From assembly GCA_040752115.1 (NCBI GenBank), contig JBFMFB010000003.1, positions 39,266 through 103,265 of the forward strand: 64,000 bases of DNA, read 5' to 3'. The stretch comes from Pseudomonadota bacterium. Its GTDB lineage: Bacteria; Pseudomonadota; Gammaproteobacteria; Burkholderiales; Sulfuricellaceae. The notes beneath the pieces were generated by a model, which saw nothing but the letters and a program-made list of their open reading frames with translations, ran no database searches and was not told where the DNA came from. The translations under genes were made by a program, and so were the position numbers. Shown here in pieces: positions 13,614 to 14,129 of this stretch. The first letter of the stretch is position 1; each line of letters starts with the position of its first letter.

Positions 13614-14129
13614 CTAGTGATGCATCGGATGCCGCAGCGTCTGAAGCGTTTCCGGGCTGACCTGCCCGAAGGGAACCGCCTGTCCGCCATGCTCCTTGGC
13701 AAACCGTTCGGCATCCTGGCTGCTCTTGAATGCGGGCATGTCGGCACCCATCGGCCCGTTGGTGTCTGACCCGACCACCAGAACGGCCTGTTCCGCCTTG
13801 ACCCAGCCGCTGCCGTTGTAATCGCTCAGGTAAATCTGGGCAATATCGGCCGCGCTATGCTCCTTGTCGAATTTCGCCATGTCGAAGCGAAACCGGAACA
13901 GCTCGGCGGGCGATTCGAAAGCGGACATTTTGTTGTCCTTGAAAATGATCTGCCCCTGCCAGCGGGGATAGCGTGCCGGATACATGCCGCATACGGGGCA
14001 GCGCTGCTGCTTGCTTACCGTCTGCGGAGGATAGGTCTCGGCCGCATTCGCGGGCGCTACCGGCACGGCAGCCAGCGTGAAAAAGAGCGCGGCGGCCGCG
14101 CCGCCGATCATGTTCTGCCAATATCGCAT
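13614..14129 (-). CDS. NosL-family copper chaperone paralog, Sec-exported and not a lipoprotein
   Basis: Start chosen at MRYWQN (AAAGGAA upstream). Signal peptide ends ANA|AE. CPVCGM motif. C-terminal HPMHH tail. Confidence 0.8.
   Translation of the reverse strand: MRYWQNMIGGAAAALFFTLAAVPVAPANAAETYPPQTVSKQQRCPVCGMYPARYPRWQGQIIFKDNKMSAFESPAELFRFRFDMAKFDKEHSAADIAQIYLSDYNGSGWVKAEQAVLVVGSDTNGPMGADMPAFKSSQDAERFAKEHGGQAVPFGQVSPETLQTLRHPMHH

Follow-up and report, generated by a model that had tools for sequence, protein, structure and literature searches.

A window of 64,000 nucleotides from the genome of a bacterium of the Sulfuricellaceae (Pseudomonadota; assembly GCA_040752115.1, contig JBFMFB010000003.1) carries on its minus strand a clade I nos cluster, with genes for nitrous oxide (N2O) reductase and its maturation in the order nosZ, nosR, nosD, nosF, nosY, nosL1, two small genes for products of 91 and 117 amino acids (aa), here called nosP-like and nosQ-like, and nosL2. 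The last of these genes encodes NosL2, a second protein of the NosL family that differs from the lipoprotein NosL1 of the same cluster in its predicted export, in its metal-ligand residues and in its phylogenetic position. NosL2 is probably an optional periplasmic Cu(I) chaperone of NosL fold that supports N2O-reductase maturation. The gene and the parts of its product that bear on this reading are as follows.

13614..14129, minus strand: nosL2, encoding a NosL-family protein of 171 aa (PF05573, 103.5 bits), predicted to be exported and non-lipidated
14043..14129, minus strand: predicted signal peptide of NosL2, residues 1-29, with a signal peptidase I site A-N-A/A-E read from the motif
13983..14000, minus strand: NosL2 motif C44-P-V-C47-G-M49, aligned to 7og7 and 7osf and equivalent to Cys59, Cys62 and Met64 of Shewanella denitrificans NosL
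13749..13751, minus strand: NosL2 Met127, within G-P-M, aligned with Met145, which in S. denitrificans NosL is the third Cu(I) ligand
13617..13631, minus strand: C-terminal His/Met tail HPMHH of NosL2, read from the sequence

The first-pass annotation of this DNA had named a profile search as the check on its claim that 13614..14129 encodes a NosL-family protein, and in that search the product matches PF05573 (NosL) at 103.5 bits against a cut-off of 24, with an E-value of 1.4e-29 and 130 of the 131 profile positions covered. Sequence matches in the Protein Data Bank (PDB) are likewise NosL entries (7og7, 7osf and 2hpu); NCBIfam holds no model matching either NosL1 or NosL2. An AlphaFold2 model of NosL2 built with 45 homologues has a predicted local distance difference test (pLDDT) score of 87.7, with values of about 98 in residues 31-160 and of 49-56 in residues 1-30. 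The best Foldseek match of this model is 7og7 (E 6e-11, template modelling (TM) score 0.83, root-mean-square deviation 2.0 A), and 7osf_H, the NosL chain of the Pseudomonas stutzeri NosDFYL complex, is matched with a TM score of 0.77. As modelled, NosL2 has the two-domain beta-beta-alpha-beta fold of NosL seen in 7og7 and 2hpu.

Holo-NosL of S. denitrificans binds Zn(II) through Cys59, Cys62, Cys88 and Asp92 and Cu(I) through the bridging Cys62, Met64 and Met145; each of the exchanges C62A, M64A and M145A leads to apo-N2O reductase, and the three Cu(I) ligands have been termed strictly conserved (Prasser et al. 2021, PMC8457098). The conserved cysteine of the CXM motif was likewise described by Bennett et al. 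2019 (PMC6530538). Zn ligands are reported to differ among NosL proteins, and in a geometry-optimised resting state Cys88, too, bridges both metals (PMC8457098). A column-by-column comparison of 67 NosL-family sequences in S. denitrificans numbering gave C59 C62 M64 C88 D/E92 M145 for the Shewanella/Pseudomonas type, GHYC62xM without C59 and C88 for the alpha type, C59 D62 M64 C88 E92 M145 for the NosL1 type, and C59 C62 M64 D/E88 D/E92 M145 for the NosL2 type. All three Cu(I)-ligand equivalents are present in NosL2 of the window (Cys47 for Cys62, Met49 for Met64, Met127 for Met145), and of its Zn-site columns Cys44 (59) and Glu76 (92) are present, position 88 being occupied by Glu72, or by Asp in orthologues. 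Residues C44, C47, M49 and G125-P126-M127 are invariant across the 45 NosL2 homologues. Between the two proteins of the cluster this amounts to a reciprocal exchange of cysteine and carboxylate, NosL1 having Asp at position 62 and Cys at position 88 where NosL2 has Cys and Glu, with two cysteines and two carboxylates retained in each. The complementarity of the two proteins, which the first-pass annotation had proposed, therefore extends further than was claimed, since positions 62 and 88 are both swapped.

Residues 1-43 of NosL2, which precede the motif, contain neither a cysteine nor a twin-arginine, and comprise a hydrophobic core followed by A27-N28-A29/A30-E31; motif inspection revealed no lipobox with an acylatable cysteine. 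Export by a Sec-type signal peptide and a soluble product are predicted from these features, and the earlier description of the protein (no lipobox, a signal peptide ending A-N-A/A-E, an intact CPVCGM and an HPMHH tail) is confirmed in each part. The N-termini of NosL2 orthologues vary. Short forms combine AxA-type signal peptides with His-rich tails, which recur among homologues of this type with three to seven His within the last 15 residues, whereas long forms of about 195-205 aa begin with a membrane helix and a Pro/Asp-rich linker. A few orthologues carry a twin-arginine, among them that of Cognatazoarcus halotolerans HKLI-1 (L130:5096-5629; RRRF), which has a Tat-like (twin-arginine translocation) start, SIRRRFLVG, and a five-His end, and its start overlaps nosQ. 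Among distant NosL relatives of 300-390 aa (P0176, P0188, P0190 and others), many have two NosL domains per chain.

Close homologues of NosL2 are few. They were collected by a word search, which yielded 52 clusters, and by an exhaustive search over 1.84 billion representatives, which gave 17 matches at E<=1e-30, within 333 at E<=1e-10. On longer contigs the tail nosL1, 90-aa gene, gene of about 120 aa, nosL2 recurs with NosL2 identities of 38-58%, and the closest relatives of NosL2 (84% and 74% identity) also stand in a tail of nosL1, small pair and nosL2. The gene ends nos clusters in at least 19 distinct loci, that is, in the window and in at least 18 other lineages, and its carriers include Gallionellaceae, Sterolibacterium, Polaromonas, Zoogloeaceae and C. 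halotolerans HKLI-1. By exact gene calls, its junction with the preceding gene ranges from a 4-nt overlap to a 17-nt gap, with a single exception of 276 nt. Seventy-one species-level loci had enough downstream sequence for the tail to be read: nine have the small pair and NosL2, 36 the pair only, 25 neither, and one the second small gene only. NosL2 is present in 9 of 46 loci with a nosP/nosQ-like pair and in 0 of 25 without it (Fisher p 0.015, kinship ignored). Its share is 13% in this survey (9/71) and 13-17% overall, or about one in seven clusters, and in a sample of the order it occurs in 3 of 22 clusters, in addition to the window's own genome. The survey of dual nosL genes that the first-pass annotation had called for thus finds the arrangement to be recurrent but optional.

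Variants of the tail occur as well. One metagenome-assembled genome (MAG) has nosL1 followed by nosL2 without the small pair. Within the window's family, one genome (G036) lacks NosL2, a convergent cytochrome c gene coming next after nosL1-P-Q, and another (G012) has a nosL1-P-Q tail with a NosL2-like gene elsewhere. Three NosL-family genes are found in the nos tail of L035 (G348:C9:141700-152000), the order being a NosL1 with SVIDGM, a degenerate copy (CESNGL, GPLG) in which both Met ligands have become Leu, the small pair, and a NosL2 with CPVCGM. A second form of dual nosL is seen in four loci of one genus of family f20 (L046, L048, L049, L055), where a distant nosDFY set is immediately preceded by tandem genes for NosL proteins of CxxC type (CHLCGM and CASC[AEG]M).

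In the tree, NosL2 groups with other non-lipidated CPVCGM proteins at 98% support, and a long branch divides this clade from all canonical NosL types. A recent duplication of nosL1 is rejected as the origin of nosL2, NosL1 and NosL2 being 26% identical and lying in separate deep clades. The tree instead places NosL2 as a recruited member of a distinct non-lipidated subfamily, recruitment rather than duplication following from the long branch between its clade and canonical NosL. Across 19 loci the pairwise distances of NosL1 and NosL2 are correlated (Mantel r 0.70, with 0 of 5000 permutations as high), and NosL2 evolves faster, at a mean p-distance of 0.51 versus 0.38 for NosL1. Ratios of non-synonymous to synonymous substitution rates (dN/dS) are 0.11-0.14 for nosL2 against close relatives, 0.18-0.22 for nosL1 and 0.08-0.17 for the two small genes (0.08-0.16 for the 117-aa gene and 0.14-0.17 for the 91-aa gene). 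The gene nosL2 is under purifying selection and, once recruited, has been co-inherited with the cluster.

The partner with which NosL2 diverges in step has the following features in the window.

14789..15307, minus strand: nosL1, encoding a lipoprotein NosL of 172 aa and of the Asp62 type (PF05573, 161.1 bits)
15239..15250, minus strand: NosL1 lipobox L20-T21-A22-C23, read from the sequence, with C23 invariant in 25 homologues
15170..15187, minus strand: NosL1 motif C41-A-L-D44-G-M46, with Asp where S. denitrificans NosL has its Cu/Zn-bridging Cys62

NosL1 matches 7osf_H at E 1.6e-32, and the alignment bears out both the lipobox LTAC and the motif CALDGM noted at first pass, the latter standing where P. 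stutzeri NosL (7osf_H) has CHVCGM and S. denitrificans NosL (7og7) has CHLCGM. With Asp44 at the position of Cys62, NosL1 lacks the strictly conserved cysteine of the CXM motif; its lipobox, its position after nosY and its family score all fit NosL. The codon for D44 is GAC, two changes from a Cys codon, and D44 is invariant in the same 25 homologues. The further claim that the canonical copy has lost a cysteine which its paralog keeps, the two forming a matched pair, fails, as CxLDGM, with Asp62, is the norm throughout the nosRDFYL-type NosL clade. Asp stands at this position in 120 of the 120 (118 + 2) best database homologues of NosL1, at 60% identity or more. An even sample of the order comprised 401 genomes, 49 of them with a NosL match, from which 35 loci were fetched; Asp is present in 22/22 clusters of the nosR-D-F-Y-L type, the nosZ-D-F-Y-L clusters having the alpha-type GHYCxM. 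When species-representative genomes were scanned with the NosL1 alignment, at least 573 loci matched, and Asp was found in 79 of the best 80, which were inspected, the motif not being located in the remaining one. Asp-type loci span Sulfuriferula, Gallionella, Methylotenera, Polaromonas, Rhodoferax, Competibacter, Chromatiales and others, and the Asp62-type proteins form one clade with 98% support in the Shimodaira-Hasegawa-like approximate likelihood ratio test (SH-aLRT). The literature searched, including a 2026 review, holds no description of this NosL type.

Genomes that have the Asp62 form mostly have it without NosL2. In the order sample, the 18 of 22 Asp-type genomes without NosL2 contain a single NosL-family match (E<=1e-10), bar one with a duplicate nosL1. 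The NosL encoded on megaplasmids of Ralstonia solanacearum reads CDLDGM, and its gene is followed by neither nosPQ, nosL2 nor any other nos gene; R. solanacearum makes N2 in a nosZ-dependent manner (PMC4453514). The Asp62 NosL evidently works alone, since it is clade-wide and mostly unaccompanied, including in the N2-producing R. solanacearum type. Compensation for a defective NosL1 is for the same reason rejected as a general explanation of NosL2, the Asp form being the norm of its clade and mostly alone. Because Cys88 bridges both metals in the published resting state, an Asp62 NosL could still offer Cu(I) one thiolate and two thioethers, and NosL1 would probably use Cys69 (the equivalent of S. 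denitrificans Cys88) together with Met46 and Met125. Some NosL1 proteins also lack the first cysteine (DSLDGM, SSIDGM), namely those of L013/L115 (G012), of L107 from a Rhodoferax MAG and of L109 from a Polaromonas MAG, in which Cys88 is the sole thiolate left near the site.

These observations bear on an obligate form of the two-step relay suggested in the first-pass annotation, in which NosL1, without the Cu(I) cysteine, would be a membrane-tethered docking adaptor for NosDFY and NosL2 the real Cu(I) binder that hands copper over. Such a relay would accord with the reciprocal pattern of Asp62/Cys88 in NosL1 and Cys62/Glu88 in NosL2, with the encoding of both proteins in one operon and their divergence in step, and with the loss of S. 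denitrificans NosL function in C62A (PMC8457098). It is nevertheless improbable: Asp62 is universal in this cluster type, but about 85% of the clusters, and most of the genomes that contain them, have no second NosL; clusters with the Asp62 form only include that of the N2-producing R. solanacearum type; and NosL1 keeps Cys41, Cys69, Met46 and Met125 invariant and is under purifying selection.

Between nosL1 and nosL2 lie the two small genes, so that the first-pass placement of nosL2 as the terminal gene of the operon holds, while its separation from nosL1 by two genes has to be added.

14497..14772, minus strand: nosP-like gene, 91 aa, without a signal peptide, its stop overlapping the next start by 4 nt
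14147..14500, minus strand: nosQ-like gene, 117 aa, of TumE/DUF6516 fold and without a signal peptide (PF20126, 28.5 bits)

The 117-aa product scores 28.5 bits against TumE PF20126 (DUF6516), for which the cut-off is 23.4, and its gene overlaps that of the upstream 91-aa partner by 4 nt. The 91-aa protein of the window had no match in the Pfam copy used, its homologues at other loci carrying PF27273 (MJ0235), and a PDB sequence search with both small proteins gave no match. TumE-TumA has been validated by experiment as a toxin-antitoxin family (PMC10584680). Chance insertion of such a cassette was considered and rejected: in 46 of 71 related loci the 91-aa gene is immediately followed by a homologue of the 117-aa gene, and the pair shows divergence in step with neighbouring genes and dN/dS values of 0.08-0.17. 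The conserved place of this TumE-family gene in nos clusters argues for a domesticated role. NosP and NosQ of Trinickia sp. Z7 are reported to form a complex with NosZ: these proteins bind NosZ, are needed for its maturation at low pH, lack signal peptides, and have been proposed to ride with NosZ through Tat (Wang et al., bioRxiv 10.64898/2025.12.16.694761). The window pair is likened to them by position, size and taxonomic range, being a small signal-less pair that follows nosL within clade I clusters of Beta- and Gammaproteobacteria, and its combined size fits the reported complex. NosL2 is found almost only in clusters with such a pair; the Trinickia preprint makes no mention of a second NosL.

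Taken together, a periplasmic chaperone role for NosL2 would run as follows. A Sec-type signal peptide cut after Ala29 would release a soluble periplasmic protein of about 142 residues, in which Cu(I) would be bound by Cys47, Met49 and Met127, the equivalents of the S. denitrificans ligands found essential by mutagenesis. A second, structural site of Zn type would be formed by Cys44, Cys47, Glu72 and Glu76, compared with three Cys and one Asp in S. denitrificans NosL, and the His/Met tail could capture metal. Made from the last gene of a putative unit nosR-D-F-Y-L1-P-Q-L2, NosL2 most likely gathers periplasmic Cu(I) and passes it either into the NosL1/NosDFY route, as added capacity, or to NosZ directly, a supply that would aid N2O-reductase maturation under copper scarcity or in harsh conditions. 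A role under harsh maturation conditions is hinted at by the linkage of nosL2 to nosPQ.

Several observations weigh against this reading. NosL2 is missing from some 85% of otherwise similar clusters, and whatever it contributes must therefore be conditional. The second metal site of NosL2 lacks Cys88, and exchanging C88 and D92 inactivated S. denitrificans NosL (PMC8457098); the metal stoichiometry of NosL2 may therefore differ. The export route varies among orthologues, some of which carry a twin-arginine or begin with a membrane helix and a long linker. Lastly, the nearest relatives of NosL2 outside nos clusters, which are nested within its clade, sit with a chemoreceptor and with a GAF histidine kinase and LuxR regulator, so that the subfamily is not dedicated to NosZ. 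In three such loci (L014, L016 and L017, from G012, G024 and G013), the gene for a NosL2-like exported protein lies between that of a four-helix-bundle chemoreceptor and those of a GAF histidine kinase and LuxR regulator, a proximity that suggests a link of the subfamily to metal sensing. Adjacent NosL-like proteins, one with a Tat signal and CPYCGM and the other with a Sec signal and CPVCGM, are encoded near an ABC ATPase gene and without a nos link in three further loci of the window's family (L010, L011, L015).

It is accordingly conceivable, though unlikely, that NosL2 is a general periplasmic copper or metal buffer or sensor, a soluble CPVCGM protein tied to signalling or to other copper systems, its gene being only a passenger at the 3' end of the nos operon. 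The chemoreceptor- and kinase-linked relatives within the clade and the Sec/Tat NosL pairs unlinked to nos fit such a role, as does a locus (L003) where a cytochrome c gene and a kinase/regulator pair come after nosL2. It is harder to reconcile with the fact that, in at least 18 lineages, nosL2 strictly follows nosQ across a short or overlapping junction, with divergence in step with NosL1, or with the species-level survey, where NosL2 occurs only with nosPQ; furthermore, the His-rich tail of the nos-linked forms is absent from the chemoreceptor-linked forms. A more specific reading, which is doubtful, is that NosL1 (Asp62/Cys88) and NosL2 (Cys62/Glu88) form a donor-acceptor pair that has co-evolved. 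The swap would then set a gradient of Cu(I) affinity for one-way transfer from NosL2 to NosL1 to NosD, as the copper-supply arm of a NosPQ-protected route for a lipid-anchored, Tat-exported NosZ; were this so, nosRDFYL-PQ-L2 would be an extended N2O-reductase assembly line for copper-poor or acidic conditions.

The remaining genes of the cluster are given below.

15307..16134, minus strand: nosY, ABC-2 permease (PF12679)
16131..17084, minus strand: nosF, ABC ATPase (PF00005)
17065..18324, minus strand: nosD (TIGR04247, 440 bits)
18415..20577, minus strand: nosR (NF046105, 611.6 bits, below the model's 1000-bit cut-off; PF12801 and PF04205)
20776..22743, minus strand: nosZ, clade I and Tat-dependent, the Tat motif being followed by a lipobox (TIGR04244, 985 bits)

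Junctions in the tail are tight, with one base common to nosY and nosL1, the 4-nt overlap of the small genes, and 17 nt with an AAAGGA ribosome-binding site upstream of the nosL2 ATG. Lipid-anchored and soluble NosL-family proteins thus appear to be encoded in one tightly packed transcription unit, as had been proposed. An alternative TTG start of nosL2 at 14162 (182 aa) was dropped in favour of the ATG at 14129, which has the AAAGGA site 8-13 nt upstream and gives an N-terminus that matches those of homologues. A GC-rich hairpin followed by a T-run at 14086-14106 (minus strand) lies inside the region that encodes the NosL2 signal peptide and is probably a by-product of Ala-rich sequence; as a terminator that would cut off nosL2 it was dismissed as a chance occurrence, there being four such hits against a shuffle expectation of 2.6. 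The NosZ N-terminus (22615-22743, minus strand) contains a Tat motif SRRKFL and a lipobox LASC followed by an Ala/Pro/Lys-rich linker, which predicts a lipid-anchored N2O reductase. NosZ proteins with Tat motif and lipobox also occur in the NosL2-bearing clusters L003, L018 and L020, the lipobox in such clusters reading LASC, LSAC or LAAC, but not in that of a Gallionellaceae MAG (L005).

NosL1 and NosL2 are the only NosL-family matches in the 2.4-Mb genome, and genes for PCuAC, SCO1/SenC and ApbE are found elsewhere in it. A division of labour between copper centres, in which one NosL serves CuZ via NosDFY and the other serves CuA directly, would agree with the requirement of Paracoccus NosL for CuZ and not for CuA at normal copper (PMC6530538), and a soluble chaperone could reach the cupredoxin domain. 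This division is nonetheless very unlikely, given the presence of PCuAC, SCO1/SenC and ApbE in the genome and the lack of NosL2 in most clusters of this type, and no sequence feature tells the two targets apart.

No biological sink for the greenhouse gas N2O is known other than N2O reductase, and failed maturation of the enzyme at low copper or low pH ranks among the main causes of N2O emission. In present models, copper is delivered by a single lipoprotein, NosL, whose Cys-Met-Met Cu(I) site is described as 'strictly conserved'; these models cover neither the large clade of Beta- and Gammaproteobacteria with an Asp-type NosL nor the recurrent, predictedly soluble second NosL, both of which bear on the scoring of genomes as competent N2O reducers. 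In the literature searched, including the 2026 review, there is no account of a second NosL within clade I clusters, as the first-pass annotation had supposed, and searches on NosL in Gallionellaceae or Sulfuricella likewise gave none. A cultured carrier of nosL2 exists in C. halotolerans HKLI-1, whose nos cluster lies on NZ_WUAF01000010.1.

Among characterised systems, NosL2 most resembles the NosL proteins of S. denitrificans (7og7) and P. stutzeri (7osf-7osj and 7znq), Cu(I) chaperones that dock on NosDFY, with which it shares family, fold, nos-cluster location, the CxxCGM motif and the GxMG methionine. P. stutzeri NosL also has a His-rich C-terminal tail. NosL2 differs from these proteins in having no lipobox and a predicted soluble product, in the Glu that replaces the Zn ligand Cys88, and in its identity of only 25-27% and its separate deep branch; it is moreover an extra copy after nosP/nosQ-like genes, whereas canonical NosL is encoded directly after nosY. 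The Asp62-type NosL, represented by NosL1 and by the proteins of Ralstonia, Sulfuriferula, Methylotenera, Competibacter and others, is by contrast a lipoprotein in the canonical post-nosY position and keeps the equivalents of Cys59, Cys88, Glu92, Met64 and Met145, but has Asp for the cysteine termed strictly conserved in PMC8457098 and PMC6530538. PCuAC and SCO1/SenC, exported Cu(I) handlers that supply CuA-type centres, offer a functional parallel, in that NosL2 may be a similar periplasmic shuttle, although their folds and families are unrelated to that of NosL2.

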